Part shown: positions 12,775 through 55,877 of the stretch, in pieces
Position numbering within the stretch: position 1 is the stretch's first letter
Layout: every line of letters starts with the position of its first letter
NCBI GenBank assembly: GCA_038063815.1
Contig: JBBTUJ010000001.1
Coordinates: 4,980 to 66,256 of the forward strand
DNA from: Patescibacteria group bacterium
GTDB taxonomy: Bacteria > Patescibacteriota > Minisyncoccia > Phycocordibacterales > EsbW-18
DNA: 61,277 nt
Reading direction: 5' to 3'
The notes under the pieces: model-generated
Database searches by the model: none
What the model was told of the DNA's origin: nothing
What the model saw: only the letters and a program-made list of their open reading frames with translations
Made by a program: the position numbers and the translations under genes

Positions 12775-12779
12775 TTTCC

Positions 12780-38311: not shown

Positions 38312-38328
38312 TCTGTTCGCAAAATTGT

Positions 38329-38372
38329 GCGGGATCAAGCGAGAGATGCGAGTTCGATTCTCGCATCCCGCA
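38329..38372 (+). other. tRNA minihelix-like remnant (acceptor stem plus T arm only)
   Basis: GCGGGAT-N12-GCGAG-TTCGATT-CTCGC-ATCCCGC-A, with no D or anticodon arm. Confidence 0.6.
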
Positions 38373-38393
38373 CAGGTTAGTGCTAATTCAAGT

Positions 38394-38405
38394 GACCGAA
38401 CGGCC
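38394..38405. repeat. Candidate attL core
   Basis: GACCGAACGGCC, identical to 54796-54807; quasi-symmetric around a central AA. Confidence 0.55.
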
Positions 38406-38567
38406 CCGTGCTTTTAGGTCGTATTTTGAGTGTCCAGTTCGGTTCCTAAAAACTTCGCCCCAGCTGAAAATAGAACCTTAACTAGGCAATATCTCTACCA
38501 TTTCCTTCGTCCTTACCTCGTTGTTGTTACTTGAAGTTAGTTAAAGGTGGTAGAATTTCGCTAACAC

Positions 38568-40310
38568 ATGGACTACATACAGAAAATAACCGCTACACGC
38601 TGGAAGCATATCCAGCTTGATAAGCCGGTCGAACTCGAACCTGGAATTAACCTGATTCTGGGTAAAAATGGAAGTGGCAAGACCTCACTTATTGGGATGA
38701 TTGAGGCGGCAGCGGTGACTCAGGCTCAGCCGCTTCGCCAAGAGGTTCTTGATGCATTTGCTGAAGGCGCTCGACTTTCCAGTATCGAACTACGGTCAGG
38801 GGAGACTGATGTTGTTATAGGTAACGACAGACGGGGTAGCGAGGGACACTGGACTGCTAGCGATCTTAAGGATCGGCTCCGAACAATTGGATCTGCCCGT
38901 TCGGTTACTAGTGGCACTAGCACCAAAAATCCTTTTGCGAGTTCTATCACTATGGATACTTCCGGGCTTGCTGTTGGCCAAACTATTGATGTCGCTGAAG
39001 AGTTCAACAAATCGATTATAAAAGAACTCATTGAGGTCATTAAAGAAAAGATGGCCGCTGGTACAGACTTTCTTGAGGAGATTCAAAAAGACTACCAAAA
39101 CGGCCTAGTTGATTTCGATAAGGTGCTAAAAATAGACCCGTCTAAGGAGAACGCAGTATTTTTCGTTGACCATCTCGATAGAGAAGTTTCCATCACAGAG
39201 CTGAGTTCGGGCGAAAAGGAGTACCTCTATTTTTACTCATACCTCCGCCGGATTCGAGCAGACGAAAACAAGATTATTCTTATTGACGAGCCGGAACTTC
39301 ACCTCCATAGCAGCCAGATAAGGAAGCTGTGCGAACTTATTGCTGGTCTGGCAGTTAAAAACCAAGTCATTATCGCAACGCATTCCGGTGAGGTACTTCA
39401 GCATTTCATTTCTCGCGCAAACATAATCCTGCTCAGTAAAGGCGTAGTTGATAGGATTCAAGATGCGGAACAAATGAGAAAAGCTCTTGAGGAGACCGGC
39501 CTACCTATCGACCCATCCGTTTTCACAGCACACTGGATCTGTGCCGAGAACGACCCCACCGTGTCTCTTCACGGCGGAGGGCCGACTACTCCAGAGGTCC
39601 TAAGTTGGATTCTTGGAAACGATTTAAACAAGCGGTATTGGTCTTTTGGGTCTAATAAATCCACCTCGAAGATTTACGGCGAAGGTATAGCCAGTGCGTC
39701 TCCAGCGGCGCATAAAATTCGTGTCACACCTCTACTGGACGGGGACGTTCTTGCCAAAACTCCGGCAGACTATTTTCCTGCAACCATTCCTGCACCAGCG
39801 AATAACCTAGCCTACTTTCCTTTTTGGGAGATAGAGAGCGCCTTTCTCAGTACTGCGATACTCAATGCCATAATTCCAACCGAAGGAGGCGTTACGGGTG
39901 CGGATAGGTTCTGGGCAAGCGTTACTACCAATCAAGCAAGACTCCTTCTCTACATAAAGAAGACTGTCGCAAAGAACAGCCTTAGGCGATTTAGCTTGGA
40001 TAAATATATTGAAGCTGACCCACAAGTTGACATAGAGAAATGGAAAACTGAAATTCAGGCGAGTGTCACTGATCTTTCCCCGATTGATACGAAATTCGCA
40101 GAAGTTATAGCTGTTAAAAACTGGCGTTGGTTGCCCGGCAAAGAAGCCCTCGCACTGGCCATTATCTTGGAGCCAAACTTCTGGACAAAGCTTAGAAACC
40201 TGCAACAGAGCAAGGAGCTTAAAGCCCTTCTCGAATTGGACGCTGGTATGAAAACGTTTATTGAAAGCATGTCTGCGCTTTCAGGAGAGGTTCCCGAAGA
40301 GGCAGAGTAG
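38568..40310 (+). CDS. ABC-type ATPase fused to a putative TOPRIM-like nuclease (OLD/PARIS-like)
   Basis: Walker A GKNGSGKT, signature LSSGEK, Walker B ILIDEPE, H-loop ATHS. C-terminal acidic motifs CAEND and LLDGD suggest TOPRIM (inference). Confidence 0.7.
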   Translation: MDYIQKITATRWKHIQLDKPVELEPGINLILGKNGSGKTSLIGMIEAAAVTQAQPLRQEVLDAFAEGARLSSIELRSGETDVVIGNDRRGSEGHWTASDLKDRLRTIGSARSVTSGTSTKNPFASSITMDTSGLAVGQTIDVAEEFNKSIIKELIEVIKEKMAAGTDFLEEIQKDYQNGLVDFDKVLKIDPSKENAVFFVDHLDREVSITELSSGEKEYLYFYSYLRRIRADENKIILIDEPELHLHSSQIRKLCELIAGLAVKNQVIIATHSGEVLQHFISRANIILLSKGVVDRIQDAEQMRKALEETGLPIDPSVFTAHWICAENDPTVSLHGGGPTTPEVLSWILGNDLNKRYWSFGSNKSTSKIYGEGIASASPAAHKIRVTPLLDGDVLAKTPADYFPATIPAPANNLAYFPFWEIESAFLSTAILNAIIPTEGGVTGADRFWASVTTNQARLLLYIKKTVAKNSLRRFSLDKYIEADPQVDIEKWKTEIQASVTDLSPIDTKFAEVIAVKNWRWLPGKEALALAIILEPNFWTKLRNLQQSKELKALLELDAGMKTFIESMSALSGEVPEEAE

Positions 40311-40315
40311 GTTCT

Positions 40316-41641
40316 CTATTTCTCAAGCGCGATTTGCCGGTCCTTCAACACCAGCGTGCTCTTGAGACAGGACAGTAGCTCTCGCTTCTCCGTGATCGTA
40401 CCCTCCTTGAGAAGATACTTGGCGTATTCGCGCAGGTCGACATCGCTGCTGCGCTCCTTAGTTTTCATGCCGAGCACGCCGATACGGAATTTGTTGTATC
40501 GCGATATCTCATCACGGATCTTCTCTTTCATGCCGATCTCGTCGAGGTCGATGGTATCGAGGAGCTTGACCAGTTCTTCTATGAGATCCGTTTCGTTCAC
40601 GGGCGGGTTCTTGCAGTCGATGTCTTTCGACCGCGTGCACCTGTAGTAGACATGGCGGTTCACGCCGCCGTCTTTAAGTTTCTTGAACTTCTCGTCTGCC
40701 GTGATGCCGCTTCCGCATACACCGCAGGCGATCAATTTCGTGAAGGCGAATTCCTTGCTCTCGGTTTTGGGGATGTACTGATCTTGGATTGACTCCTGCA
40801 CCTTGTCGAAAAGTTCCTTGGTGATGAGTGGCTCATGTTTGCCCTGATACCAATTGCCGCTCCCGCGCGGGTACTCGAATTCACCGTAGTAGAAGGTGTT
40901 GCGAATGACGGTATACAGATTCCCAAGCGAGAGGTGTTTGCCAGTATGGGTCTTGAAGGCGTTTTTCGTGAGCCAGCGATGTGTTTGCCGTCCACTCCAT
41001 TTCTCATTGCCGATTTTCTCGAAGATCTTCCGAATAGTCGCGGCACGCTTCGGGTCGACAATAACCTCGCACTTGCGGTCTGTACGTTTTTCATTGAGGT
41101 AGCCAGTTGGTGCCGTTGATGGCCGCAGACCCATTTCGCAGCGGGCTCGTAGCCCGCGCTTCACATTGATGATTTTCTGGTCGTTCTCGAGCTTCGCCTG
41201 CGAGCCGAGAATCATGAGCATGAACTTCTCGTTTGGATTGTTGGTAAAGGCCTGCGTGAAGGTGCGTATCTCGACCAGCTTCTTTTGATCCAGGAGATCG
41301 ACAACCGCACCCAAATCTCCGGCGTTGCGACTGAGCCGATCCGGTGCCCACGTGAGGATACCGTTGAACTTCTCCTGCCGGATATCCTCGAGAAGCTGGT
41401 TATACACCGCCCGCTGGCCTACTTCCTTGGAGGAGTGCGACTCGCGCTTGACCTCGACGATCTCAAGATTCTCGCGCGTGGCGATGGCGGTCATCTCTCG
41501 CACTTGGGACTCGATGGAAAGCGCCTGTTTGTCCTCTTCCTCGGTGCTCTTTCTTGCATACAGGCAGTATCGGACCTTTACGGGCACGGGGACGGCCTGC
41601 CTGTTAATGCCGCCAACGGGAGCCCTTGTTGCTGTGTTCAT
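40316..41641 (-). CDS. Large serine recombinase (resolvase, recombinase and Zn-ribbon domains)
   Basis: 'YCLYARKSTEE' catalytic Ser, 'DRLSRN', 'PTGY', 'HEPLIT', 'CGVCG...YYRC...C'. Start placed at ATG 41641. Confidence 0.93.
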   Translation of the reverse strand: MNTATRAPVGGINRQAVPVPVKVRYCLYARKSTEEEDKQALSIESQVREMTAIATRENLEIVEVKRESHSSKEVGQRAVYNQLLEDIRQEKFNGILTWAPDRLSRNAGDLGAVVDLLDQKKLVEIRTFTQAFTNNPNEKFMLMILGSQAKLENDQKIINVKRGLRARCEMGLRPSTAPTGYLNEKRTDRKCEVIVDPKRAATIRKIFEKIGNEKWSGRQTHRWLTKNAFKTHTGKHLSLGNLYTVIRNTFYYGEFEYPRGSGNWYQGKHEPLITKELFDKVQESIQDQYIPKTESKEFAFTKLIACGVCGSGITADEKFKKLKDGGVNRHVYYRCTRSKDIDCKNPPVNETDLIEELVKLLDTIDLDEIGMKEKIRDEISRYNKFRIGVLGMKTKERSSDVDLREYAKYLLKEGTITEKRELLSCLKSTLVLKDRQIALEK

Positions 41642-41739
41642 ATACCACAAGGGATGACGCGAACAGTCCTAGGAGTCAAGAGCGTCCGAGGGGCTTGGAG
41701 TTGGTAACTTTACTGGCTCAAAGTTGCTAGAATAGTCCC

Positions 41740-41858
41740 CGCAACCGAATACCTGGCCTAACCTCGCCTTCGGGCGAGCATGGTCAAAAACCATCCAAGG
41801 AAGCTTCCTCGCACGAGGACTCGGCCGTTGGCCGGATCTGGATGCGAGGTTTTCTTTT
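41740..41858 (+). ncRNA. Candidate small RNA, motif copy 1
   Basis: Extended -10 TGCTAGAAT (41725-33). GCCTAA, hairpin ctcgcc-ttcg-ggcgag, CATGG-N7-CCATCCAAGG, then a cctcgca/tgcgagg stem and U-tract. Confidence 0.5.
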
Positions 41859-42906
41859 ACTCGGTGCGCCAGAACCAGTATCGGTTGTATACGTCCTGAC
41901 GCAGGCGGTATGCGTCGGCATGACTGAGTACGCCCATGTACGAATTGAGGCAGGACTCGAGCGTCAATTCGCTTATCTCCCCACGCTTGTAGGCACGAAC
42001 GGCTTGGTGCAGCTTTCGTGGAATCCGGCGTTTGGTCTTCGCACGAAGCTGCACGTGATTCGGCAACATGATGTAGCCGAGAAAGTCCACGCCACGCGTA
42101 TGCCTCCGCAATGTTATTTTCTTCGGATGTAACTCCAGCAGTAGTTTCTCTCGCAGAAAGTCTTGCATTGGCGTAAGCAAGTCCTCAAGGTAGCTCTTGT
42201 CGTTAGACACAATGATAAAGTCGTCCGTGTATCGAGCGTAATGTTTGACTTTCAACTCACGCTTCACGAACTGATCAAACTCATTCATGTAAATGTTCGC
42301 AAAGATCTGCGATGTCAGATTGCCGATTGGCACGCCTCGTCGCTCGAACAGATTCGGTCTGCTTGCGGAAAAGCTCTCGACGATCTCATGCATCAGTCTC
42401 ATGACCTTCTCGTCCTTGATCTTTGTGCTGAGAATCCCTAGGAGCGTGTCGTGGTCGATAGAGTCGAAGAACTTTCTGATGTCGCACTTGAGTGCGTAGC
42501 ACGGACGCGTGTTGTTGCGACTCACGGCGCGTATGACTTGTGCAACCCACCGCACGCCCTTGTGTGTTCCTTTGCCAAGACGGCAGGAAAACGACGTTGG
42601 GATGAAGGTCGGTTCAAAGATGGGGTTGAGCACGCTGAAGATAGCGTGGTGAAGCACGCGGTCGCGAACCGTCGCCTTATGAATGTGACGCACTTTAGGG
42701 TCGTGAATCCAGAAGCCCCTATACGCTCCGTGTTTGTACGTGCCATTCTTCAGATCTCGGTACAGGCCAAAGATGTGTTGCTCGATGTCTACCCCGAATT
42801 CCGCCACGTCAGGTTTGTTCCGCTTGTCGCGCTTGAATACCTCCCAAGCTCGAAACAACGTCTGCGGAGAGATTATTAACCAGCTTAGATTCTTATAAAC
42901 CTTCAT
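41857..42906 (-). CDS. DGR-type reverse transcriptase
   Basis: 'VRDRVLHHA', 'CDIRKFFDSI', 'GVPIGNLTSQIFAN', 'RYTDDF' and 'GVDFLGY'; 349 aa with no maturase or endonuclease domain; adjacent to avd, TR and VR. Confidence 0.93.
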   Translation of the reverse strand: MKVYKNLSWLIISPQTLFRAWEVFKRDKRNKPDVAEFGVDIEQHIFGLYRDLKNGTYKHGAYRGFWIHDPKVRHIHKATVRDRVLHHAIFSVLNPIFEPTFIPTSFSCRLGKGTHKGVRWVAQVIRAVSRNNTRPCYALKCDIRKFFDSIDHDTLLGILSTKIKDEKVMRLMHEIVESFSASRPNLFERRGVPIGNLTSQIFANIYMNEFDQFVKRELKVKHYARYTDDFIIVSNDKSYLEDLLTPMQDFLREKLLLELHPKKITLRRHTRGVDFLGYIMLPNHVQLRAKTKRRIPRKLHQAVRAYKRGEISELTLESCLNSYMGVLSHADAYRLRQDVYNRYWFWRTE

Positions 42907-42909
42907 AAC

Positions 42910-43260
42910 ATGAGTGATTTAGACATACCCATCTTCAAAAAATCCTACGATCTCTACAAAGAGTTCTACGGACTCCGCCTCTCGGTGCCGAAGCAAGACC
43001 GCTATACGCTCTGGCAAAAGTGCGAGAATCTGCTCATCGACATCCTTGAGGGCATTCTCCTTGCGAGCCAGCAGTCAAAGTCTGAGAAACTGCCGACCTT
43101 GGAGAAAGCGAGCGTGAAGCTCAACTTCATGCGGGTCTGCGTGCGCCTGTTGAAAGACGTGAAGGCAATCGACGACAAGAAGTACGTGCTCATTGAGGCG
43201 GACCTCGATGAGATCGGTCGGATGCTGGGTGGGTGGATCAAATCCACAAAAGAGCGTTAG
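42910..43260 (+). CDS. avd: DGR accessory variability determinant (Avd, four-helix bundle)
   Basis: 116 aa; 'IPIFKKSYDL', 'PKQDRYTL' and C-terminal 'EIGRMLGGWIK'. Confidence 0.9.
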   Translation: MSDLDIPIFKKSYDLYKEFYGLRLSVPKQDRYTLWQKCENLLIDILEGILLASQQSKSEKLPTLEKASVKLNFMRVCVRLLKDVKAIDDKKYVLIEADLDEIGRMLGGWIKSTKER

Positions 43261-43261
43261 T

Positions 43262-43290
43262 AGAAACTCCCGCGTGAAGCGGGAGTTTCT
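43262..43290. terminator. 12-bp hairpin between the avd 3' end and the TR 3' end
   Basis: agaaactcccgc-gtgaa-gcgggagtttct. Confidence 0.75.
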
Positions 43291-43313
43291 CACTGTGGAT
43301 GGAGGTATGACTG

Positions 43314-43428
43314 CCTGGCGGACGACACACCGATGTTGCTGTTGCGGTTGTTGTCGTTCCAGTTGTTGACGTTGAGACCCTTGGCGTCGAAGTTGCCGAC
43401 GTTCACGTGGTTGCCGTCCGAGTCGAGG
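43314..43428 (-). ncRNA. DGR template repeat (TR), 115 nt
   Basis: Aligns without gaps to 43816-43930; contains 11 in-frame AAC codons and 32 adenines. Confidence 0.95.
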
Positions 43429-43756
43429 TAGCTGCCCGTTCCCATCCGTGGCACCAGCACTCGAGGTTTGCCGCTCTTGCGAGCCTATATCCTCTCACGC
43501 CTGTATTTTATTCGAGAGCAGATTCCTTGCGGAACCATCTCCCCCTAGAAACGGGCAAGAAGTTCTCTCCATCCTTAATCGCACGCTGCCGTGATCCGTA
43601 AACCACTGGCACTCTGGCGATATCTCAAGGTGAGATATCTCGCGAGCGTGAACCGTAACCCACGCTACATTAGCAAGATTCAAAAAGTATAGTGTATCTG
43701 TATAAAAAACGAAAGCCCCCGGCACACTCTCCGACCGAAGTCGAAAAATATGCGCG

Positions 43757-43800
43757 GAGGCTCAAGACCTCAAGAGGGACAAGCCCTCAAGCGGTCAAGG
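43757..43800 (-). promoter_or_regulatory. Candidate DGR target-recognition hairpins 3' of VR
   Basis: gaggg-acaag-ccctc (43774-88) and gagg-ctcaaga-cctc, about 27 nt past the VR end. The stems are short, so the role is inference. Confidence 0.4.
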
Positions 43801-43809
43801 TTCAGAACT

Positions 43810-44607
43810 TCACTTCCTGGCGGACGACACACCGATGTAGCTGTGGCGGTAGTAGTCGTCCCAGCTGTAGACGTAGAGACCCTTGGCGCCGAAGCCGCCG
43901 ACGAGCACGCGGTCGCCGCCCGAGTCGAGGCTCGACGTACGCACGTAGACGTTCGCGAAGAGCCGGATGCCACGGACCTCGAAGTACATGGTGATGAACC
44001 ATGACATCTCGGCAGCGTTCGGCACGCTCTCGACACCCGACAGGAGCTTCTCCTGCTCGCTCCAAGTGCGGTTCGTCGAGTTCGGGACCGGCGTCTTGCG
44101 GATGGCGAGCCACCCGAACGACGTCTTGTCCTTGCTGGCGAACTCCTGGTCCGCGTACCAGCCGCCGGTCTTGCTGTAGAAGTGATTGGTCACGAGCTGG
44201 CGGACGTCCAGGAGCGACATCGCCGTTGGTGGCGCGGGCATGACGGCGTAACCGTTGTCCTTGCACCACCGCAGCATGTCGGCCGAGGGGATGCTGGCCG
44301 CGAGCGTCGCGATCTCGTCGTTGGTATAGGCGACACCACGACGAGTGGCCATGATCTCCTCCGGCGTGATGAAGTCCGCGCCGAGGATGGACTGAGCCAG
44401 GATGTAGTCAGGCAGCTTGGCCGAGAAGCGGCGGATGCCCTCGATGACCCAGTCCTGGAACTCACCACCACGCCCGATCAGGCGCTGGATGGCGTCCTTG
44501 TCGGGGTTCACCTCGACGAGAGCACGGTCACCCGTGTCCTCGACAAAACGCTTGAACTGCTTCTCTTGCGGCTGGGTGCGGTCCGACGTGATCGACTGAG
44601 TCGTCAT
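43810..44607 (-). CDS. DGR target protein (265 aa), C-terminal variable region, presumed CLec-like fold
   Basis: Start at ATG 44607 after SD aaggag. The last 38 sense codons before the final Lys form the VR. No signal peptide or TM helix. Confidence 0.9.
   Translation of the reverse strand: MTTQSITSDRTQPQEKQFKRFVEDTGDRALVEVNPDKDAIQRLIGRGGEFQDWVIEGIRRFSAKLPDYILAQSILGADFITPEEIMATRRGVAYTNDEIATLAASIPSADMLRWCKDNGYAVMPAPPTAMSLLDVRQLVTNHFYSKTGGWYADQEFASKDKTSFGWLAIRKTPVPNSTNRTWSEQEKLLSGVESVPNAAEMSWFITMYFEVRGIRLFANVYVRTSSLDSGGDRVLVGGFGAKGLYVYSWDDYYRHSYIGVSSARK
43816..43930 (-). repeat. DGR variable repeat (VR), 115 nt
   Basis: 16 mismatches versus TR, all at TR adenines; invariant 3' tail atcggtgtgtcgtccgccagg. 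Confidence 0.95.
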
Positions 44608-44751
44608 CGTCTGCTCCTTGTAGGTCACTACCATCCGCTTTGGGCGAACGATAACTGTCTCGGAATGAGACGAGTGTTTTAGGGACTTATGAAAATCCAC
44701 AAAACACTCGCCTCATTCAAGTTCTGAATTGAGAAGGAGCTTCTGGTGTAT

Positions 44752-44780
44752 ATAGTACCATAACGGTATACAGAAGTCAA
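44752..44780 (-). promoter_or_regulatory. Sigma70-type promoter for the DGR target gene
   Basis: Minus strand TTGACT-N17-TACTAT. Confidence 0.65.
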
Positions 44781-44878
44781 GAGTTGGTAACTAGGCTTCG
44801 CAGGGCCCTATTTCTAAGCTATAAGGGACATAGAAATTCGGCCTAAAAATGGTAGTATTTCTTTAACAACTGAATAGA

Positions 44879-45048
44879 GCCTAAACCCTCCGTTGGAGGG
44901 CATGGCGTTGAATCCATCCAAGGTAAACACCCCGTCGTCAGGGTTCCTTGGATGGTCGTAGGGGGAAACCTCTACGTTCTGGCCGAAAGGCTAGAGCTCC
45001 TGGCGGCGGGCTTTTTGCTACCCGCTGGGATAAATCCATCCAAGGAAC
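44879..45048 (+). promoter_or_regulatory. Structured 5' leader of the RM methyltransferase (motif copy 2)
   Basis: GCCTAA, hairpin ccctcc-gtt-ggaggg, CATGG-N8-CCATCCAAGG, two GAAA-capped hairpins, and gttccttggatgg complementary to ccatccaaggaac over the SD. Confidence 0.6.
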
Positions 45049-46761: not shown

Positions 46762-46762
46762 T

Positions 46763-49090
46763 ATGTTCGCTCTCAAACCATTTCAGGAAGTAGCTGTCTC
46801 GAAACTCAAGAACGAGTTCCTCTCACTCTGGAAGTCACCGCACGAGAACATCCCGCTTGTTTTTAAGTCACCGACGGGATCGGGCAAAACGATCATGCTC
46901 GCGCAGTTCCTTCGAGATATCGTCGGCGACCCACGCTTCCAAGGTAATGATGTCGCGTTCCTGTGGTTCTCGTTCAGCGAAGACTCATACCTCCAGAGCA
47001 AGGGCAAGCTCTTTGATTACTACGGCGGCGCATCGGAACTCGACCTGTTGGATCTTAACGACCTCACCCGAGGGAAGCTTGAGCGAAACAATGTCTTTTT
47101 CATCAACTGGCAGAAGATTAAGGGAAAATCGAAAGAGAGCCGCAAGCTTCGGCGCGACAACGAGTGGGACCTGACCTTCGACAGCTTTATCAACAAGACC
47201 CACGAAGCGAAGCGGAAGCTGGTGGTCATCATCGATGAAGAGCACATCGGCTCCGATACCGATCTCGCGCTTGAACTGGTGAATGGGCTCATCAAACCAA
47301 AACTGATCGTCCGTGTTTCTGCGACCCCGAAGTACATCCCGAATGCGGAAGAGATCGCCGAGAAGAAAGGTGGTTTCGTTCAAGTAAAACGAGAAGAAGT
47401 AGTGGAAGCCGGATTGATCAAGGAAAAGATCGTATTCCAGACCGAGGAAGACCTGAACAGGAAAGAGCTAAAGGATATGGATCAGGACGAGATCCTTCTT
47501 GAGCTTGCATACCAAAAACGTCTTGAGCTTGTACAGCACTACAAGGCACTTAATATCGATATCAATCCGCTGGTCCTCATCCAGCTGCCGAACGACGATC
47601 AGGAAAGCACCGCGACCAGCACCAACAAGCGCGGTATTGTCACGCAGTTCCTCAAAGCAAAGGGTATTGGCGAGGAAGAGATAGCTGTCTGGCTCTCTCA
47701 GGAAAAAACGAACCTTGAAGACATCGAACAGAATGCTTCTCCTGTGTCATTCCTGCTCTTCAAGCAAGCCGCAGCGACCGGCTGGGACTGTCCGCGCGCG
47801 GGCGTGCTTGTGATGTTTCGAGAAATCCAGAATCCCACCTTCGCGATTCAAACCGTTGGTCGCATTCTGCGAATGCCGTTAGGTATACACTTCCCGCGAC
47901 CGGAGCTGAACATCGGCTACCTCTATACCAACTACAAGCGCAACGAGGTGCTTGCGGAATATGCGAAATCGAAGACCGACAACCGACCGGCGATCTACGG
48001 CAGCCACCGCAAAGTGGACATCGTACCACTCCAAGTCGAGTCTATATTCATGAGCCGAACCGACTACAACGATCTCGGTGACAGCTTCCAAGACGTATTC
48101 AGCGAAACTGTCGATGCGTATTTCGGGATCAAAAATGCAGACACGAGGCAGTCTGTCTTGAAAAAGCTCAAAGAAAAGGATTTGGAGATCTCACCGATGC
48201 TGACGAACGGTCTAATCGTAAACGTGGAGATCGACGACTATGACAACTTCACCCATGAGCTGCTTGCGGAAGGGAGCAGCCATGAACAGGAGATATCGCA
48301 GTATGATCTCGAACGACTCTACAATCTGCTGTGCTTCAAGCTCATCGTGCGGCAAACCGATGAAAACAAGAAGTTCGCTCCAGAGCGATCGTGGGGCAAG
48401 CTGAAAACAGCTCTCAATGTCTGGCTCATGAAGCGCCTCGACCTGACGCGACAGGAGGTATATACGATTCTCGTCTATGACCTCCTCAATCCCACCAGCG
48501 TCCTCGCTCCGCTCATCGGAGAATCGCTCGGTTTGTACCGCCCTCTGCGGGAACGAGAGGTGGATAAAAAGTCGTCCCGCTCGAAGCGTACGGAGGTCAT
48601 CGAGATGCCTCGTGAATCATTCTTCTTCACTGATCAATACGAGGAAATGCGCGTGAAGAAGTGTGCGATGACCCCGTTCTATATCGAGAAAAGCTATGTA
48701 GGAGAAGATAACGAGAAGGAGTTCATCGCCTTTCTCGAACACCACAAAAACGTCCTGTGGTGGTACAAGAACGGCGATCTCGGGAGCGAACACTTCTCCC
48801 TCTCGTACTACAACCCCGAGGAGAACAAAGAAAGACTATTCTATCCCGATTGGATCGTGAAGACGAAGTCCGGCGTATGGATCATTGATACCAAGAAAGG
48901 AAGTACGGCTGAACTTATGGACACCAAGTACAAAGCTGAAGCACTGCAACAATGGGCTAAAGTCCAAAAGGGATTCCTGGCTGGCATCGCCGTACAAGAC
49001 GGTCCCAACGGATGGAAGATCAACACAGAAAAGACGTACACGTATACGCCCTCGTTGACCGGATGGAGAAATCTGCAGGAGCTGTTGTGA
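46763..49090 (+). CDS. Type III restriction endonuclease (Res; SF2 helicase plus PD-(D/E)xK nuclease)
   Basis: Walker A SPTGSGKT, 'IIDEEH', 'TGWDCPRA', 'QTVGRILR', C-terminal 'YPDWIV...IIDTK'. Start placed at ATG 46763. Confidence 0.9.
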   Translation: MFALKPFQEVAVSKLKNEFLSLWKSPHENIPLVFKSPTGSGKTIMLAQFLRDIVGDPRFQGNDVAFLWFSFSEDSYLQSKGKLFDYYGGASELDLLDLNDLTRGKLERNNVFFINWQKIKGKSKESRKLRRDNEWDLTFDSFINKTHEAKRKLVVIIDEEHIGSDTDLALELVNGLIKPKLIVRVSATPKYIPNAEEIAEKKGGFVQVKREEVVEAGLIKEKIVFQTEEDLNRKELKDMDQDEILLELAYQKRLELVQHYKALNIDINPLVLIQLPNDDQESTATSTNKRGIVTQFLKAKGIGEEEIAVWLSQEKTNLEDIEQNASPVSFLLFKQAAATGWDCPRAGVLVMFREIQNPTFAIQTVGRILRMPLGIHFPRPELNIGYLYTNYKRNEVLAEYAKSKTDNRPAIYGSHRKVDIVPLQVESIFMSRTDYNDLGDSFQDVFSETVDAYFGIKNADTRQSVLKKLKEKDLEISPMLTNGLIVNVEIDDYDNFTHELLAEGSSHEQEISQYDLERLYNLLCFKLIVRQTDENKKFAPERSWGKLKTALNVWLMKRLDLTRQEVYTILVYDLLNPTSVLAPLIGESLGLYRPLREREVDKKSSRSKRTEVIEMPRESFFFTDQYEEMRVKKCAMTPFYIEKSYVGEDNEKEFIAFLEHHKNVLWWYKNGDLGSEHFSLSYYNPEENKERLFYPDWIVKTKSGVWIIDTKKGSTAELMDTKYKAEALQQWAKVQKGFLAGIAVQDGPNGWKINTEKTYTYTPSLTGWRNLQELL

Positions 49091-49169
49091 TGTAAAAGAG
49101 TACTTACCGGAACATGTTAATCCACTTTATTACTTTACTTCATCTCGCTCACAAAACAGATCCTCGTCT

Positions 49170-50984
49170 CTAGAACTTCCCAAAAATATCTCGCAGTTTC
49201 TCTACATGCTTCTCGACCGCCGTCTCATCCGGCTTGATTGACTCGACGTCAATAATCCAATCCTCTTTAAGATATAGTTTATCCTTGCGCCTAAAGGGCC
49301 CCTTGTTTATTCGTTCCAAGTCACCCTCTTGGGTGTTAGTGGCTACTCGGACCGCATCATTGTCGCTTTCGATAAACTCCTTCACAGCTTTTATTCTTTC
49401 GGAGACGTGTTCACTCATGTCGGCTTCGTAGATGTCGTCCAACTTCTTAAACACCGCTTCGAACGCGAGCAGCTGGGCGTACCCGTCCATCAAGGTAATC
49501 CGTCGCGTTCTGAACAATGCCTCGTATAACAGGTCCTTGAATTCAAGGTAGGTCTTGCCGCCCTCTCTGGTTTCCTTAAAGTAGCTTGTACCCTCGAAGA
49601 TATTGGAGAGCAGTGTCATCGACATACCATAACGGCTGAAGAACGTCGGTTCGCCCTTGGCATTATGGCCACAGATAAGAAGCTCTTGATCCAAGTGGTC
49701 GCCCTTGTGCTCCGGATCATCGTCGGCATAGACGATGCCGAGGTTTGGATCGTATGTGTCCGCACGCTTCTTGAAGTCTGTTACGAATTTATACCTTCCC
49801 TTGAACGCATACAGACTCTCGCCGGTAATCACTGACTCGCTGAAGGTCTCAAAGGCAATCCTTTCGTCTACTTCTCCCTTATAAGCGGTTTCAAGGCCGA
49901 TATTTTCCAGCACATGCTTCGACAACGCAAGCTCCCCGTCGAGCGCATCCTTGCTGTAGAGTTTTTCTTTTCTCGTTTCGGCATCTGTTCGTCCTCGAAC
50001 CGTGAGGTCGCCCGCATCGATATGCTTTTTCAAGACCCCCCTTGCTTTTTCTTTGGTGGAGATCCAGCGCTCGAATAGCTTCGCGTCGGTGCTCACCACC
50101 AACGGCGTATACTCATCGAGGAGACCACTCTCCAGAGCTGCAAGGCAGGCATCCTTAAGCATTGTTCGGATTGTCGTATGGTGCTCTGCCGCATACGCTT
50201 CCATGACCTTCTTTATCTCATCAGATTCATAGAGACCGTCGTCATCTTTGCTGACGGGTATCTCGATGCCCTTGCTCTTGAGAAAATATTTGGCGACCTC
50301 AAGAAGAGGAATGCAGGCGAAGTAGTGGTACAACTGATACTCCTTGGCGAAGTTGTTATAGCTTTTCTCGGCCACCAGTTCGGCGAGCCGTTCCTGGGCT
50401 TCGTGCGTCAATTCGTTCTTGCCGTTGAAGAGACCCGCGATCACTTCTTCCTGATCCAGATACTGGTGATCATATTCCACCTCCTCATAGAGTTCTTTCA
50501 TTCTTTTCTTCTCCTCAAGGCTTAAAAGCTCGAACGCCAGTTGGTAGACCGCGTAGTCAAAGTCGACGCCTTCCTTGAGCTTTACCTCTCGCTGTTTTTT
50601 GGCGATCTCGGCTGCCTCTGCAACCGTCACTTTCTTGATCTGCTTTAAGGTTGTGATGGCTCCTTCCATACGCTGAGTGACTGGGTACCCCACCAGTTCC
50701 ATGATAAACGGCAGCTGGGCCAAGTGTGCAACCTGAGCGTCCTTGTACAAGAGTTCTATTTCAAGATCCATGCGGCCGGAGTGTTTCCATCCTTCGTTCA
50801 GGGTGTTCCACTCTCGGGCTTCAGCATTGTCCTTCGCGTGCCAGTTTTCCAGAGCGTCCTTATCGGCGGGGGTGAGGATGTCTTTGCCGGTCTTCGCGCG
50901 GTGCATCTCGTTTTTGATGAGCATCAAAAACTTTTCCCGGGCGGTGAGGTTACCTCTCGAAAGTGCGTTGGTGAGCTGTTTCAT
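49170..50984 (-). CDS. Hypothetical protein (604 aa), element-encoded
   Basis: Long helical, charged ORF at the end of the minus-strand operon; no family recognised. Confidence 0.75.
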   Translation of the reverse strand: MKQLTNALSRGNLTAREKFLMLIKNEMHRAKTGKDILTPADKDALENWHAKDNAEAREWNTLNEGWKHSGRMDLEIELLYKDAQVAHLAQLPFIMELVGYPVTQRMEGAITTLKQIKKVTVAEAAEIAKKQREVKLKEGVDFDYAVYQLAFELLSLEEKKRMKELYEEVEYDHQYLDQEEVIAGLFNGKNELTHEAQERLAELVAEKSYNNFAKEYQLYHYFACIPLLEVAKYFLKSKGIEIPVSKDDDGLYESDEIKKVMEAYAAEHHTTIRTMLKDACLAALESGLLDEYTPLVVSTDAKLFERWISTKEKARGVLKKHIDAGDLTVRGRTDAETRKEKLYSKDALDGELALSKHVLENIGLETAYKGEVDERIAFETFSESVITGESLYAFKGRYKFVTDFKKRADTYDPNLGIVYADDDPEHKGDHLDQELLICGHNAKGEPTFFSRYGMSMTLLSNIFEGTSYFKETREGGKTYLEFKDLLYEALFRTRRITLMDGYAQLLAFEAVFKKLDDIYEADMSEHVSERIKAVKEFIESDNDAVRVATNTQEGDLERINKGPFRRKDKLYLKEDWIIDVESIKPDETAVEKHVEKLRDIFGKF

Positions 50985-50985
50985 A

Positions 50986-51201
50986 TTATTTTCTTTTCTT
51001 TAAGGTCTGTTCAAGAAATTCAACCCTGTCTTTAAGCTCGGTGATCTCTAGGACCTTCGCCAGAGCGAGTGCCAGGCGGGAGACGACCAAAGCGCGCCGC
51101 GTGCCGGTCTTTCGCTGGTGCACGTCCTGCAACGTATCGGAAAGAATGGCCGCCGCTTCCTCGATACTCAGATATTTTTTAGGTTGTTCGTGTAGTTCCA
51201 T
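50986..51201 (-). CDS. Small hypothetical protein with C-terminal coiled coil
   Basis: 71 aa, tightly packed in the operon; ends 'EITELKDRVEFLEQTL'. Confidence 0.6.
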   Translation of the reverse strand: MELHEQPKKYLSIEEAAAILSDTLQDVHQRKTGTRRALVVSRLALALAKVLEITELKDRVEFLEQTLKKRK

Positions 51202-51206
51202 ACTTG

Positions 51207-51599
51207 TTACATTCCTTCGATTATTTCCATCCAGGCCCGCACCTCCGCCGCCTTACCGGTTTTGGTGGCTTCCCGATACAGTGCCGAGACCACATTCGGC
51301 GTTAACCGCTTGGCCCACGCCGTGACGTTTTTAAGGAGCCCGCCGTTCTCCTCGATCCGTTTGTTCCAAGCGGTCAAGGTACCGAGATCTTTGATGCCGA
51401 AGCGCTTGGCGAATTCCGTTTGGTTTTTGATATCAAGCAGGGACATCGCTAGCTCGTCGTCGATACCGAACTTCTCGATGACGTGCCGCGGCTGACCGCG
51501 AAAGATCGAGGGCATCGAGCGCCACAGAATGTATGACTCGAACTCCTGTTTCTTGTATACCGTCAGGGCTTTGGAACTGTCTTCGTCGAAGTGCGGCAT
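51207..51599 (-). CDS. HTH protein resembling phBC6A51-type / small-terminase-like proteins
   Basis: 'NQTEFAKRFGI...TLTAWNK' HTH and 'TPNVVSALYREA..GKAAEVRAW'. The family call is inference. Confidence 0.5.
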   Translation of the reverse strand: MPHFDEDSSKALTVYKKQEFESYILWRSMPSIFRGQPRHVIEKFGIDDELAMSLLDIKNQTEFAKRFGIKDLGTLTAWNKRIEENGGLLKNVTAWAKRLTPNVVSALYREATKTGKAAEVRAWMEIIEGM

Positions 51600-51604
51600 A
51601 TCGT

Positions 51605-52372
51605 TCAGGCATGGTTAATACGTTCAGCTTTCTTGTTGGTAAGCTTCTCCCACCGCTCGATGATCGTCTGGCAGTACGTCTCGTCGCATTCAACCGTGAA
51701 GCATACCCTGCCCATCTGCTCGCACGCGATAAGCGTTGAGCCTGACCCACCAAAAGGGTCGAGTACGACATCTCCAGGCTTGGTGCTGTGGTAGATGAGC
51801 CGCCGCAAGAGCATCGGCGGCTTCATGGTGGGGTGGAGTTTGCTCCTGCTTGGTTTCGGATAGAACAGCGCAGTCTTGTCTTTGTTACCGAAGTAGGCAT
51901 ACGTACCAAGCCAACCATAGACAATCAGCTCATGTTGGGGGTGATAGTCTTTTCTTCCCATCACATGATGATTCTTGATCCAGACCAGGAGGCTCGACTT
52001 AGTATGCCCGAGGTCGTGGAGTGCATTTAAAAACTCTCGCAGCTTCGAGTCGCCGCTGAAGATATAAAAAGCGTTCTTGTCTCTCAAATGGGGCTTCACC
52101 GAAGAGAGCCACTTTTTTGAAAAAGCATAGTAGTCTTCTTCCACGCCGTCGCCTTTGATGACGCCAAATCCTTTATCCTTGGTCTTTTTGTGAATCGCTT
52201 TCAGAAGCTCCTGCTTGCCTTCGACATATCCAACACCATATGGAGGGTCCGTGAGCAAGAGCGTTACTTTCTTCTCACCGACAAGGAGACCCACGTCTGC
52301 CTTGTTCGTGGCGTCTCCGAGCATGAGACGATGCTCTCCGAGCTTCCAGATTTTAGTTACATTTTTTGGCAT
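51605..52372 (-). CDS. DNA methyltransferase (N4/N6 family)
   Basis: 'HRLMLGDAT', 'TDPPYG', 'HPTMKP' and 'VLDPFGGSGSTLIA'. Start placed at ATG 52372. Confidence 0.9.
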   Translation of the reverse strand: MPKNVTKIWKLGEHRLMLGDATNKADVGLLVGEKKVTLLLTDPPYGVGYVEGKQELLKAIHKKTKDKGFGVIKGDGVEEDYYAFSKKWLSSVKPHLRDKNAFYIFSGDSKLREFLNALHDLGHTKSSLLVWIKNHHVMGRKDYHPQHELIVYGWLGTYAYFGNKDKTALFYPKPSRSKLHPTMKPPMLLRRLIYHSTKPGDVVLDPFGGSGSTLIACEQMGRVCFTVECDETYCQTIIERWEKLTNKKAERINHA

Positions 52373-53615
52373 GATCTCCGGTGAAGTGCTCGTAACGCTT
52401 GATGATGACGTCGCAGAAGGTTGGATCAATCTCCATGAGGAAGGCCCGACGTTGCAGTTGTTCTGCAGCGATGAGTGTTGAGCCGCTGCCTCCAAAGAGG
52501 TCAAGAATAATATCTCCCGGTGCGCTACAGCGCTTGAGTGGTTTTTCAGCCAAGGTAATTGGCTTTTGGGTGGGGTGTTCGTAGTCCTTGGTATTGTCTC
52601 GTTTCACCAGCCAGAGCTGCACGATTGACATGAGGTCATCGTAGAGGCCGATAGAGTGTACGTCCTTGTTGAGGACTTCGGAGAGATTCTTCATGCTTGG
52701 ATTGAGTGCCGGACTGCCCTTCGTGCCGTAGACGCACGGCTCGATCACTTTGTTGAAAGCCACCTGCGGCGTTGGATCAAAGTTGTTCTTCACCCAAAAG
52801 CAGATGCGGCGATTGACCAATCCGAGCTTTTCATAGAGCCGCTGCACAAGTCCGACGTACTTCTCGTCGCACCAGTAGAAAACATGCACGCTATCGTGGC
52901 TCCCTGTGATAGCGTTCTGGATTGATGTTTCTAAGAACGATTCGTACTCGTGGGTTTTCTTGCTGTCATTGACGTAGTTGTCTGGAGTGTACTTGCCTTT
53001 AGTGCCGATGCCCTTGCGGTAGTCAAGACCGATATTGTATGGAGGATCGCAGTAAATCATGTGTGCTTTCTCGGTACCCGTGAGCTTTGTGATGTTTGCC
53101 GAGTCGAGCGCATCGCCACAAAACAGTCTGTGTTTGCCGAGCCGGTACACGTCTCCCGGTTTCGTTTCCGGCTCAGTGATCTTGGCCAGTTCTGCCTCTA
53201 CGTTGAAACCGTCGTCCGAAACATCGAGGACATCGTCGAAGAAGAGATTGAGTTCGTCCGGCGTGAAGCCGACATCGAGGAGGAGTGTGGTGTCAAAGGC
53301 TTTGAGGAGTTCTTCGTCCCATGCTCCGAGATTCTTATTGAGTCGGAGGTTGAGCTCCTTTTCTTTTTCCAGGTCCGGGAGGTTGAGATACACCACCGGT
53401 ACTTCCTTGAATCCGAGCTTCGTCGCCACCTTGAGGCGCAGGTGTCCGCCGATGACGATATTCTTCCTCTCTGGGGCGCTGTTGACAATAAGTGGATCGC
53501 AGAGCCCAAAACGGGTGATAGACTCCGTCATGTCCGAGAAGGCCTTCTCGTCCCATTTGCGCGGGTTGTATACCGAGGGCTTGAGCTCGGTTATCTTCAC
53601 GTGCTCTATCTTCAT
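52353..53615 (-). CDS. ParB/Srx-like domain fused to DNA methyltransferase
   Basis: N-terminal 'LKPSVYNPRK...SITRFG...VIGGHLR' then 'CDPPYN', 'HPTQKP' and 'LDLFGGSGSTLIA'. Start placed at ATG 53615. Confidence 0.9.
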   Translation of the reverse strand: MKIEHVKITELKPSVYNPRKWDEKAFSDMTESITRFGLCDPLIVNSAPERKNIVIGGHLRLKVATKLGFKEVPVVYLNLPDLEKEKELNLRLNKNLGAWDEELLKAFDTTLLLDVGFTPDELNLFFDDVLDVSDDGFNVEAELAKITEPETKPGDVYRLGKHRLFCGDALDSANITKLTGTEKAHMIYCDPPYNIGLDYRKGIGTKGKYTPDNYVNDSKKTHEYESFLETSIQNAITGSHDSVHVFYWCDEKYVGLVQRLYEKLGLVNRRICFWVKNNFDPTPQVAFNKVIEPCVYGTKGSPALNPSMKNLSEVLNKDVHSIGLYDDLMSIVQLWLVKRDNTKDYEHPTQKPITLAEKPLKRCSAPGDIILDLFGGSGSTLIAAEQLQRRAFLMEIDPTFCDVIIKRYEHFTGDHAKKCN

Positions 53616-53703
53616 AGGTGTACCTTTTGCTGTGCTAGATTGCGACATATAGTATCATTATTGGGTAAAAAAATTTGTCATTGAAAACTGATCGATCCGC
53701 TCC

Positions 53704-54225
53704 CTACTTTTTTGTGAACGGCAGACCCAGAAGCTTAAGCTGGATCTCGGCGACCTGTCTGCTGACCTTAAACGTTTTGGCGATATCTTCCAGATACGGC
53801 CGCGGAGAAACTCGGCAGTATGCGCGAACATGTGCTTCCGGCATGAGGAGGTACCCCGCGAACAGATCACAGATGCGTTCCACCCAACTGGTGTTGTCCG
53901 TCGAGCAATACTCTATCTTTCGGGGGCTTCGCATCAGCACGATGTGCCCAAGCTCGTGGGCTGCAGAGAAGCGCTGGCGCTCGGGACATTCATTGCCGTT
54001 GAGGGCGATGACCCACCCGACATCCATCTCTTTCCTGGCAAAGCCCGAGATGCCATCAGCAAAAATGGGATCGAGAGAGGTTATGACATTTGCATCGACG
54101 ACGTAGGATTCGATCACGTCTCGGATCGGAATCGGTATCGTGAGCGTATGCACCTCAGCAAATTCAGCGAGAATTTCATTCGCTTTGTGCTTCGCCTTGT
54201 TTTTCCATTCGGGAGGTGGATGCAT
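53704..54225 (-). CDS. ImmA/IrrE family metallopeptidase
   Basis: 'RQRFSAAHELGH' (HExxH) and 'ERICDLFAGYLLMP'. Confidence 0.9.
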   Translation of the reverse strand: MHPPPEWKNKAKHKANEILAEFAEVHTLTIPIPIRDVIESYVVDANVITSLDPIFADGISGFARKEMDVGWVIALNGNECPERQRFSAAHELGHIVLMRSPRKIEYCSTDNTSWVERICDLFAGYLLMPEAHVRAYCRVSPRPYLEDIAKTFKVSRQVAEIQLKLLGLPFTKK

Positions 54226-54234
54226 GTGATGCGT

Positions 54235-54573
54235 TTAGTTTTTAAGTTGGTTCTTCAGCGTTGTGATGTAGGCTTCCACCGCTTGTGTCTGATGTTCGTT
54301 GAGGTTGTATGCGGCCCGGAAGAACGTCTGTGCGGTTGCCGATTGCATGTAATCGTCCTGCGTAATGCCCGCTTTGGATAAAATGATCTCAAGCGGTTCC
54401 TCGAGTCCCTCGGCGATCTTTCGCAATGTCTTAATCGAGGGGGATTCATCAGGATACGCTCCTTGCTCAAGACGGGAGATGTATCCTCTGGTGAGCTGTG
54501 CGTTCTCGGCCAGCTTCTCTTGCGTCAGGCCTTTTTGCTCGCGCAAATCCTTAATGACCGTGTGCAGTTTCAT
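54235..54573 (-). CDS. XRE-family HTH repressor (ImmR-like)
   Basis: 'IKDLREQKGLTQEKLAENAQLTRGYISRLEQG...PSIKTLRKIA'; directly upstream of the ImmA-like gene. Confidence 0.92.
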   Translation of the reverse strand: MKLHTVIKDLREQKGLTQEKLAENAQLTRGYISRLEQGAYPDESPSIKTLRKIAEGLEEPLEIILSKAGITQDDYMQSATAQTFFRAAYNLNEHQTQAVEAYITTLKNQLKN

Positions 54574-54652
54574 AGTGCGTTATGATTATCGTGTCATTAG
54601 TAACCTGACGTAAGGATACCATAGGCGGCTACAATGTGAAGTATAGTAAGGG

Positions 54653-54788
54653 TGTGGATAAGTACAGAAGTTCAATATTACAAAACATTCTTTGTAATAT
54701 GTAAAGTTTCAGAGTCAGGAAAATTGGGTTTGTTTGGCATTTGAGACACGCCCTGAGACACCCTTGAAGTGTCTCATTTGTCTCATTT
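54653..54788. promoter_or_regulatory. DnaA-box match plus cluster of four TGAGACA repeats
   Basis: TGTGGATAA at 54653-61; tgagacac at 54742 and 54754; inverted tgtctca at 54770 and 54779. Confidence 0.5.
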
Positions 54789-54795
54789 GCAACGC

Positions 54796-54807
54796 GACCG
54801 AACGGCC
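54796..54807. repeat. Candidate attR core
   Basis: GACCGAACGGCC, identical to 38394-38405. Confidence 0.55.
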
Positions 54808-54894
54808 TCGACCTGTTATATTAAAAGTCCCCGAAAAACCCTTGTGGTGCTTGATGGCCCAAGGTTCACGACCTAACGGGGGCACTAAATAACG

Positions 54895-55326: not shown

Positions 55327-55333
55327 TATTTGT

Positions 55334-55861: not shown

Positions 55862-55877
55862 TGTTAGATACTCTTTG

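Follow-up and report, generated by a model that had tools for sequence, protein, structure and literature searches.

An integrative island with a diversity-generating retroelement and defence genes in a Patescibacteria genome and its probable membership in a recurrent, phage-related family

Introduction

Phage-inducible chromosomal islands (PICIs), including the SaPIs, are compact elements (10–17 kb) with an integrase, a repressor-based switch, a homologue of the small terminase subunit (TerS) and accessory or defence cargo; they are without a large terminase (TerL), portal and capsid, and their packaging-proximal genes are related to those of real phages. The same description fits an island of approximately 16.5 kb (∼38.33–54.89 kb) in a 61,277-nt stretch of DNA, referred to below as the window, from contig JBBTUJ010000001.1 (assembly GCA_038063815.1) of a Patescibacteria group bacterium. 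This integrative mobile island lies in the interval between a tRNA-Gly and a tRNA-Arg gene and carries a diversity-generating retroelement (DGR) together with defence genes. It differs from PICIs in its large serine recombinase (the usual PICI integrase is of the tyrosine type), in having no recognizable primase/initiator or origin, in the ParB-methyltransferase fusion (ParB-MTase) and second methyltransferase (MTase) of its core, in a hallmark protein without a known fold (p604), in the DGR on board and in its host, which belongs to the CPR (candidate phyla radiation). All coordinates given below are those of the whole window, and L-numbers denote comparison loci (relatives and metagenome and phage contigs).

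Other described systems share individual traits with the island. ICEBs1 and phage-like elements have an ImmR/ImmA switch; the island likewise has an XRE-type repressor adjacent to an M78 metalloprotease at one end, but unlike ICEBs1 it has no conjugation genes, and it holds none of the relaxase and type IV secretion system (T4SS) or coupling-protein (T4CP) genes of integrative and conjugative or mobilizable elements. SCCmec (CcrA/B) and the fdxN element (XisF) resemble it in their three-domain recombinase and adaptive cargo; this similarity is at the family level only, the sites of the island are tRNA-proximal and the rest of the genes are unrelated. DGRs are unusually common in CPR bacteria. 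The DGRs of CPR clade 2, which have been treated as cell-encoded (Roux et al., 2021, PMC8144416), have targets without a transmembrane or known domain and adenine-specific template and variable repeats (TR and VR). The window DGR shares this TR/VR pattern and its domainless target agrees with theirs, but it is situated inside a recurrent, apparently phage-derived integrative island, beside a serine recombinase and defence genes.

P4-like satellites and P2 prophages have defence hotspots (bioRxiv 10.1101/2021.01.21.427644), fixed positions that hold different anti-phage systems in each copy. In the present islands, the equivalent positions follow the recombinase and p604 and adjoin the terminal repeat. 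Homologues of the P4 primase-helicase alpha, Psu, Sid and Delta were absent from the Pfam and PHROGs matches of the island, which also differs from P4 in integrase class (tyrosine in P4) and host phylum. Closer in habitat are the horizontally acquired islands of Paceibacteria, groundwater Patescibacteria, with restriction-modification (RM) systems and an ATP-dependent endonuclease, reported in PMC12455944; the main text of that paper is without the words 'recombinase', 'retroelement' and 'terminase', and it seemingly describes no such core, DGR, serine recombinase or phage-packaging link. A literature search that did not extend to Paul et al. (2017) or to the LOOT supplement found no paper on the core module, on its link to phage packaging or on a DGR on such an island.

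An original prediction, made from the letters of the sequence, had read positions 38394–54807 as a satellite-like integrative island that combines a DGR with RM and other defence cargo, and had not recognized the combination as a named system; no paper describing it was found. The account favoured here, on balance, is that of a recurrent, previously unnamed family composed of a phage-derived core, a CPR-type DGR and a serine recombinase with exchangeable defence slots. The core operon comprises XRE, ImmA, ParB-MTase, MTase, the TerS-like p130, p71 and p604. The DGR follows the order target gene with VR, TR, oppositely oriented avd and reverse transcriptase (RT). The third component is the large serine recombinase, with cargo slots beside it and after p604, which in the window are filled by a type III RM system preceded by a LOOT RNA and by an OLD-like ATPase.

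A recurrent island family

The core operon of the window is encoded on the minus strand. It begins with an XRE-family repressor (54235..54573; HTH_3) and an ImmA/IrrE-type metalloprotease with an HELGH motif, a putative anti-repressor (53704..54225; Peptidase_M78). These are followed by a ParB_N domain fused to an N6/N4 DNA methyltransferase (52353..53648; Pfam; phrog_498, E 2e-102) and by a second N6/N4 DNA methyltransferase (51605..52372; Pfam; phrog_498), the start of which was set by comparison with homologues, the open frame extending to 52504. The operon is completed by p130, an all-helical protein in the position of a small terminase and TerS-like from its context in phages (51207..51599), by p71, a small conserved core protein (50986..51201), and by p604, the hallmark protein of the family (49170..50984). 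The reading frames are all full length relative to their homologues. The original prediction had listed a serine recombinase, an XRE and ImmA switch, both methyltransferases, a terminase-small-like gene, type III Mod and Res, an ATPase-TOPRIM gene and a full DGR; all of these genes are present, although their order is not that in which they had been written.

The genes for ParB-MTase, MTase, p130, p71 and p604 are colinear in 40 metagenomic loci (the MTase in at least 30), usually with XRE and ImmA ahead. Identities across these loci are 73–85% for ParB-MTase, 74–83% for p130, 51–64% for p604 and 59–82% for p71, which has no family match in Pfam, PHROGs or a further hidden Markov model (HMM) search. 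The values for ParB-MTase and p130 surpass the maximum found for LepA (73%), and in L082 the ParB-MTase is 85% identical as against 46–53% for the backbone proteins. More than 250 full-length homologues of p604 were found, all of them CPR or metagenomic; 225 clusters were counted at 50% identity.

At least five further sites combine the core with a CPR-type DGR and a large serine recombinase, and the cargo differs from one site to the next. In L084, which lies between tRNA-Ser and tRNA-Arg, the cargo is a MoxR-type AAA_5 ATPase and a VWA protein with three target paralogues; in L166 it is a type I RM system and a Shedu-like SduA_C protein; in L167, an AAA_21/AAA_15 ATPase whose gene converges on that of the recombinase, an arrangement shared with the window; in L168, Dcm, Vsr and unknowns; and in L170/L191, a type III RM system (51–53% identical to that of the window), Shedu, a RelA_SpoT-like protein and extra recombinases. 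L097 is a partial locus on a short contig, in which a type III RM system, a LOOT RNA and a target gene come directly after p604 and neither RT nor recombinase was seen.

A comparison of L166 with L168 provides the strongest support for joint movement of core, DGR and recombinase and for the 3′ side of the recombinase as the point of cargo exchange. Over the 9.9 kb that run from ImmA to a point 76 nt ahead of the recombinase stop codon, the two loci are 92% identical in nucleotide sequence; they lie in unrelated flanks and carry different cargo. Such near-identity in unrelated flanks indicates mobility. In addition, DGRs are strongly enriched beside the core module in comparison with ordinary CPR loci: of the 18 loci whose sequence continues for at least 3 kb past p604, 4 have a DGR there, as do three short loci and the window, compared with 1 DGR in 1.34 Mb of LepA-neighbourhood loci. 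Loci with distant p604 relatives contain a tyrosine integrase, a Dam methylase, a DnaG-type primase (L119), Fic and an MTase-Mrr fusion, gene content that again indicates mobile elements.

A comparison of homologous islands across CPR had been proposed along with the original prediction, and it bears out the idea that a hypervariable protein travels on a mobile island with anti-phage systems: in L084, L166, L167, L168 and L170/L191 the DGR is accompanied by such cargo, and core, DGR and recombinase co-travel in several loci while the cargo is swapped. That these loci form a family of mobile islands by which the DGR and the defence genes are carried jointly is quite probable.

Insertion into the chromosome and island ends

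The LepA relatives of the window (best matches 72–73% identical) place its host among the Patescibacteria/Paceibacterota (CPR); the source contig, of 119 kb, comes from the 0.1-µm fraction of Hainich groundwater, and the host is ultra-small. The backbone MurJ-LepA-DivIC-tRNA-Gly-tRNA-Arg-p88-tRNA-Phe-p152-p236-p710 is common to approximately 40 related loci. In L002, the closest relative with its downstream flank retained, tRNA-Gly and tRNA-Arg are separated by 1 nt, compared with ∼17.5 kb in the window, where tRNA-Gly(ccc) (38240..38313, plus strand; ARAGORN, Rfam) marks the chromosome at the end of the island that bears the recombinase. For the 16 proteins of the interval (14 of the island, p143 and DoxX), tblastn gave no match at this locus in 80 related loci; its sole matches there were those of RT and Avd, which lie elsewhere in L036, and one short ParB-MTase match. 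The island is thus an insertion and not a fixed syntenic block, and, with ordinary conserved chromosomal genes on both sides, it does not form the margin of a larger prophage. Fixed synteny in the relatives and adjacent structural phage genes were the two findings that the original prediction had named as contrary to it, and neither was encountered. The same island in the Gly–Arg gap of relatives was considered and ruled out, since in L048 and L054 the gap is occupied by unrelated genes.

Between the island end and p88, the region 54895–55949 contains p143 (with a weak Nuc_deoxyrib_tr match), DoxX and an inverted tRNA-Arg(cct), which are absent or otherwise oriented in most relatives. The tRNA-Arg is inverted in L048 and L054 too, where other cargo occupies the gap.

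At the recombinase side, the island adjoins a tRNA-Gly pseudogene (38330..38375, plus strand) that consists of an acceptor stem and T-arm with an internal deletion and resembles a recombination scar. Its 5′ 7 nt and its T-arm/3′ acceptor are those of the tRNA-Gly of L002, and a similar 3′ fragment follows tRNA-Gly in L048; the intact tRNA-Gly of the window differs from the pseudogene/L002 type in the acceptor stem and T-arm. The recombinase-side ends of other islands also adjoin tRNAs, namely tRNA-Ser(cga) in L167 and tRNA-Arg(cct) in L084. In island-free relatives, tRNA 3′ fragments or mini-tRNA pseudogenes are found downstream of intact tRNA-Gly or tRNA-Arg (L048 ∼12740–12780; L002 12567–12593); repeated integration may have left them as scars.

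A 12-nt direct repeat, GACCGAACGGCC, is present at both ends (38394..38405 and 54796..54807) and is a candidate att core, near-palindromic about a central AA/TT. A repeat of this length was equalled in 3 of 500 shuffles, and the motif GGCC.TTCGGTC is conserved at the position of the second copy in other islands. A related 14-nt repeat, AACCGTCTCGGTCG, stands at both ends of the L167 island (0/500 shuffles). The originally proposed limits of 38394 and 54807 coincide with the repeat; conserved island sequence, however, runs on to ∼54889 at the XRE end. The outermost conserved sequence there is a fragment resembling the 3′ end of tRNA-Arg (54863..54889, plus strand), 18 of 23 nt of which match the 3′ end of the host tRNA-Arg. 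Read inwards, the order is this fragment (54889–54863), ∼55 nt, GGCCGTTCGGTC (54807–54796), a slot that holds extra open reading frames (ORFs) in some islands, four TGAGACA half-sites (54740..54786; two direct and two inverted; a candidate operator, origin or pac element), GCCAAA repeats and XRE. At the half-sites, an exact copy of ATGAGACAAATGAGACA occurs in the window, L081, L082, L090 and L094, and a near-exact one in L102 and L166. The tRNA-like fragment is the precise starting point of conservation in the window, L102, L145 and L084, and the equivalent sequence is where the L166/L168 block of identity begins.

Classical duplication of a tRNA 3′ end as att was considered and rejected, no second 3′ end of tRNA-Gly, in either of its two types, or of tRNA-Arg being present at the far end, which holds only the degenerate Arg-like fragment. 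In L091, tandem copies of the terminal block (2749–2810 and 3981–4040) surround a 198-residue ORF, and in L167 a cluster of tRNA-Ser fragments in both orientations lies beside the island (5380–6180), suggesting serial integrations at one site. A look-up with p88 returned no empty-site or alternative-junction contigs from the same population. The DivIC look-up returned only contigs identical to the window, which end at 38276, in the anticodon loop of tRNA-Gly (two Logan contigs, two assemblies), or at 40434, a position within the recombinase gene 118 nt from its 3′ end (one contig of an NCBI metagenome-assembled genome). The latter end resembles that of the L166/L168 identity, 76 nt before the recombinase stop. 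Both contig ends may be assembly-graph branches caused by population heterogeneity, trivial causes also being possible.

The picture that emerges is one of tRNA-proximal site-specific integration with accretion, and several observations count against a single, neatly bounded mobile unit. The candidate att sites are not cleanly defined: in terms of the PICI pattern of an integrase with att sites, the integrase is present and the repeats are of 12 nt in the window and 14 nt in L167, while no terminal repeat of L084 is significant and the ends are complicated by tRNA fragments. An inverted tRNA-Arg stands outside the island beyond p143 and DoxX, and the recombinase end abuts the tRNA-Gly pseudogene and not tRNA-Arg. 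GC content does not mark the island, with the exception of the DGR target gene (62%). Of the 18 core-module loci that extend at least 3 kb beyond p604, 13 showed neither a linked DGR nor a linked recombinase, and p604 is directly followed by housekeeping genes in the 10 of the 13 whose downstream ORFs were scanned. The core also occurs by itself and may therefore often be immobile or domesticated. Finally, the DGR cassette of the window is inverted relative to those of L166, L167 and L168.

The last two observations are what would be expected if the locus were a mosaic in a variable tRNA-flanked hotspot, in which a domesticated seven-gene module, a chromosomal DGR, a recombinase islet and defence genes were not one unit and the module served the host, for example in methylation or interference with phage packaging. 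The unrelated cargo of the Gly–Arg interval in L048 and L054, the change of cargo at the recombinase 3′ end and the tandem att-like repeats of L091, which suggest stepwise accretion, fit this explanation equally. It is nevertheless unlikely, as it does not account for the continuous identity of L166 and L168 from ImmA through the DGR into the recombinase between unrelated flanks, for the recurrence of the order module-DGR-recombinase in at least five loci in different hosts and sites, for the enrichment of DGRs beside the module or for the matching terminal repeats that enclose the full set in the window and in L167.

Relationship of the core to phages

Homologues of the ParB-MTase (50–54% identical) are present in 18 IMG/VR contigs. 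In L187 and L182 the gene order is ParB-MTase, MTase, TerS (phrog_4044), TerL, portal and head protein. The island protein p130 is 51% identical (E 2e-45) to L171:7968–8429, which overlaps the TerL gene of an IMG/VR contig, and 32% identical to the product of an L172 gene upstream of TerL and portal. By these comparisons, the island core is homologous to and colinear with the block that lies just upstream of the packaging and structural genes of phages. In the island, the phage-like block ends at the TerS homologue, and p71 and p604 follow.

Searches of the island with Pfam, PHROGs, PADLOC and NCBIfam gave no match for capsid, portal, TerL, tail, relaxase or T4SS, as the original prediction had stated, and tblastn with the TerL, portal and head proteins of related phages was negative both for the window and for 767 kb of island loci. 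Neither the window island nor the related islands contain a relaxase, an oriT protein or a T4SS gene. An integrase and a repressor switch combined with a putative TerS, without TerL or capsid, is a signature of the PICI kind of satellite, and like PICIs the island has a candidate packaging-hijack gene (p130, by its context) and no TerL, portal or capsid. The satellite designation of the original prediction is genuinely, if indirectly, supported by the TerS homologue and by the block of ParB-MTase, MTase and TerS that stands without TerL, portal and head genes; the replication module of a PICI, on the other hand, is not recognizable. In its workings the element would come closest to a PICI-type satellite or to a P4-type carrier of defence hotspots.

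The further step, that transfer depends on a helper phage, is plausible and is put forward tentatively. Four results argue against it. No TerS HMM, PDB profile or Foldseek match was obtained for p130, which gave only a weak HTH_28 match, so that its assignment as TerS rests on context; the terminase-small-like gene of the original prediction is in this sense upheld by its neighbourhood in phages and not by HMM or fold. No primase or initiator domain was found in the island with Pfam and PHROGs, a DnaG-type primase being present only in the distant variant L119. For an AlphaFold2 (AF2) model of p604 (pLDDT 80), Foldseek returned nothing from PDB or BFVD. A tblastn search with p604 against phage and plasmid collections and a pattern scan of IMG/VR found none; the only IMG/VR case is a distant 497-residue relative on L170, itself an island without structural genes. 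In addition, p604 has no match in Pfam, PHROGs, PADLOC or NCBIfam, and a profile search of 1.8 billion representatives returned only members of its family. The possibilities that p604 is a portal, TerL or capsid protein were ruled out by HMM, profile and fold searches.

The lack of a recognizable TerS HMM or fold for p130 and of p604 relatives in phage and plasmid collections and, apart from the distant protein on L170, in IMG/VR could also be explained by a helper-free integrative element that spreads by natural transformation through competence pili or is mobilized by CPR type IV secretion, p130 being a DNA-binding regulator. Pilus genes flank some islands (e.g. L084 and L165), and Patescibacteria have been reported to have T4SS homologues (PMC12102498). 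This explanation is rather improbable, given that no island has a relaxase, an oriT protein or a T4SS gene, that p130 is 51% identical to the product of a phage gene overlapping TerL and that the order of ParB-MTase, MTase and p130 mirrors that of phages. An ordinary decayed prophage with its structural genes deleted would account for the phage-like integrase, XRE/ImmA pair, ParB-MTase, MTase and TerS-like gene and for the listing of the relative L170 in IMG/VR, but is very improbable in view of a compact set free of structural genes that is kept at 50–85% identity in dozens of loci in diverged hosts, of the full-length reading frames and of the conserved chromosomal genes on both sides.

The diversity-generating retroelement

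The DGR of the window has canonical anatomy. Its RT (41857..42906, minus strand; 349 residues; RVT_1, E 7e-28) contains the motifs IGNLTSQ and YTDD and is 40–60% identical to the RTs of related islands. The accessory protein Avd (42910..43260, plus strand) matches Pfam bAvd and the NCBIfam DivGenRetAVD equivalog with 83.5 bits, above the cut-off of 80 bits. The avd gene is divergent from that for RT, with 3 nt between the start codons, and the recurrence of this arrangement in L036, L084, L166, L167 and L168 shows that it is a trait of the lineage and not an artefact.

The TR (43310..43428, minus strand) is located beside the DGR-type RT, and the VR (43930–43812, minus strand) lies at the C-terminus of the target gene (43810..44700, minus strand; a variable protein of up to 296 residues) and ends 2 nt ahead of its stop codon. 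The 119-nt pair shows 17 differences, 16 of which are A-to-N, the 17th being at the 3′ end and resembling an initiation of mutagenic homology (IMH) sequence. The TR contains 33 adenines, distributed over codon positions 1, 2 and 3 as 15, 18 and 0, and 11 AAC codons. The number of diversifiable target codons is 21, corresponding to a theoretical repertoire of ∼10^19 variants. Only one VR is present in the window.

The target protein has no signal peptide and no match in Pfam, PHROGs or NCBIfam; it is 24–26% identical to the products of target-like genes in L084 and L097. Overlapping public contigs are either identical to the window or end short of the VR. In L084 (13796–20134), target-like paralogues of 270, 272 and 275 residues are interleaved with the MoxR-type AAA_5 ATPase and the VWA protein, a set that may represent a DGR-diversified multi-protein system. 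At the 5′ end of the target ORF of the window, there is an overlapping 26-nt inverted repeat (44663–44718; 85% complementary, 4-nt loop), which gave spurious sub-threshold matches to miRNA families in an Rfam E-value scan.

Recombinase, defence cargo and LOOT RNA

The recombinase (40316..41650, minus strand; 444 residues) is assigned to the large serine recombinases from its three Pfam domains above cut-off (Resolvase, Recombinase and Zn_ribbon_recom) and the catalytic serine motif YARKSTEEE in its N-terminus, and it matches the phrog_95 integrase with E 2.6e-65. The best NCBIfam models are CcrB, the closest, and XisF, both of which score below their cut-offs. Homologues in related islands are 51–65% identical.

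Convergent with the recombinase is the gene for a 580-residue ABC ATPase (38568..40310, plus strand) similar to OLD, PARIS AriA and PtuA (AAA_21, 70 bits; AAA_15, 69 bits; AriA, PtuA and GajA in PADLOC; AriA in the PDB). The original prediction had called it an ATPase-TOPRIM gene; the ATPase is borne out, while for TOPRIM there are motifs without an HMM match. Specifically, residues 290–580 gave no HMM or PDB match for TOPRIM/DUF4435, and the C-terminal motifs CAEND, LLDGD and EIES align with VEGDD, LLDGD and ESEN of the equally placed ATPase of L167; a TOPRIM/DUF4435-like C-terminus is possible.

The second cargo slot of the window holds a type III RM system that is complete by HMM. Its methyltransferase, Mod (45049..46761, plus strand; N6_N4_Mtase; PADLOC MTase_III, 293 bits), has homologues that are 53–55% identical and adjoin the core module in L097 and L170. 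The restriction subunit, Res (46763..49090, plus strand; ResIII, Helicase_C; PADLOC REase_III, 49 bits), starts at 46763, directly after the end of Mod at 46761, and is 64% identical to that of L097 and 51% identical to that of L170.

A LOOT RNA (Rfam RF03000) is located 54 nt upstream of mod (44878..44995, plus strand); it scores 77.2 bits against a gathering score of 46.4 and covers model positions 1–121. A weak, degenerate LOOT-like element lies between the recombinase and RT (41749..41842, plus strand; 22.7 bits, E 7e-4) according to covariance model R1, which was built from the LOOT copies of the window, L097 (7677–7799) and L167 (16936–17055). A search with R1 added three further copies, in L119 (7255–7379), L134 (5828–5957) and L137 (3279–3408). 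Strong copies number six in 0.73 Mb of p604-linked loci and zero in 1.34 Mb of ordinary CPR loci, and this RNA, an orphan Rfam family, is an island-associated feature. It stands 5′ of cargo genes, which often encode DNA methyltransferases: mod in the window and L097, the MTase-Mrr fusion in L119 and a 326-residue ORF in L167. The full L167 copy occupies the position equivalent to 41749–41842 and is divergent from the L167 recombinase, and the L137 copy is near a tyrosine integrase. The strong and the degenerate copy of the window flank its DGR cassette as direct repeats. The RNA could function as a leader, as a small RNA or as a cassette boundary.

Two further observations concern the chromosomal part of the window. 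The segment 27001–29000, which adjoins tRNA-Trp, is low in GC (0.41–0.42, compared with 0.49 for the window). Position 34912, within MurJ, is A in the public ENA contig L193 and G in the window.

Proposed mechanism and implications

A mechanism for the island can be outlined from the likely functions of its genes. The serine recombinase would integrate and excise the island at tRNA-proximal sites, and the XRE/ImmA pair would hold it silent until a signal arrives, in the form of helper infection or DNA damage, while the two methyltransferases would protect its DNA. By analogy with the TerS proteins of PICIs, p130 might redirect the packaging machinery of a helper onto island DNA, a step for which the case is finely divided and leans slightly to the negative; p71 and p604 could act in replication or in packaging interference. 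The DGR would rewrite 21 codons in the C-terminal part of its target and so supply a binding module open to diversification, in the form of a receptor-binding protein or of a sensor inside the cell, and the RM and ATPase cargo would defend both host and island from other phages.

Whether the islands constitute the first family of phage satellites in CPR, with a DGR of their own, in which a hypervariable receptor-binding or phage-sensing module is combined with a TerS-based hijack and exchangeable defence, is doubtful at present. If it is true, part of the Patescibacteria DGRs that have been catalogued as 'cellular' would be satellite-borne, and p604, p71 and the LOOT RNA would represent new satellite-specific functions in replication, interference or regulation.

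The family supplies testable parts, namely a serine integrase with tRNA-proximal sites, a TerS homologue, the orphan protein p604 and a genomic context for the LOOT RNA. The placement of one DGR lineage on a recurrent, probably phage-derived island that shuttles RM, Shedu, OLD-like and other defence genes provides a concrete vehicle for the spread of DGRs, and would link targeted hypermutation to the arms race between phage, host and satellite in organisms with tiny genomes.

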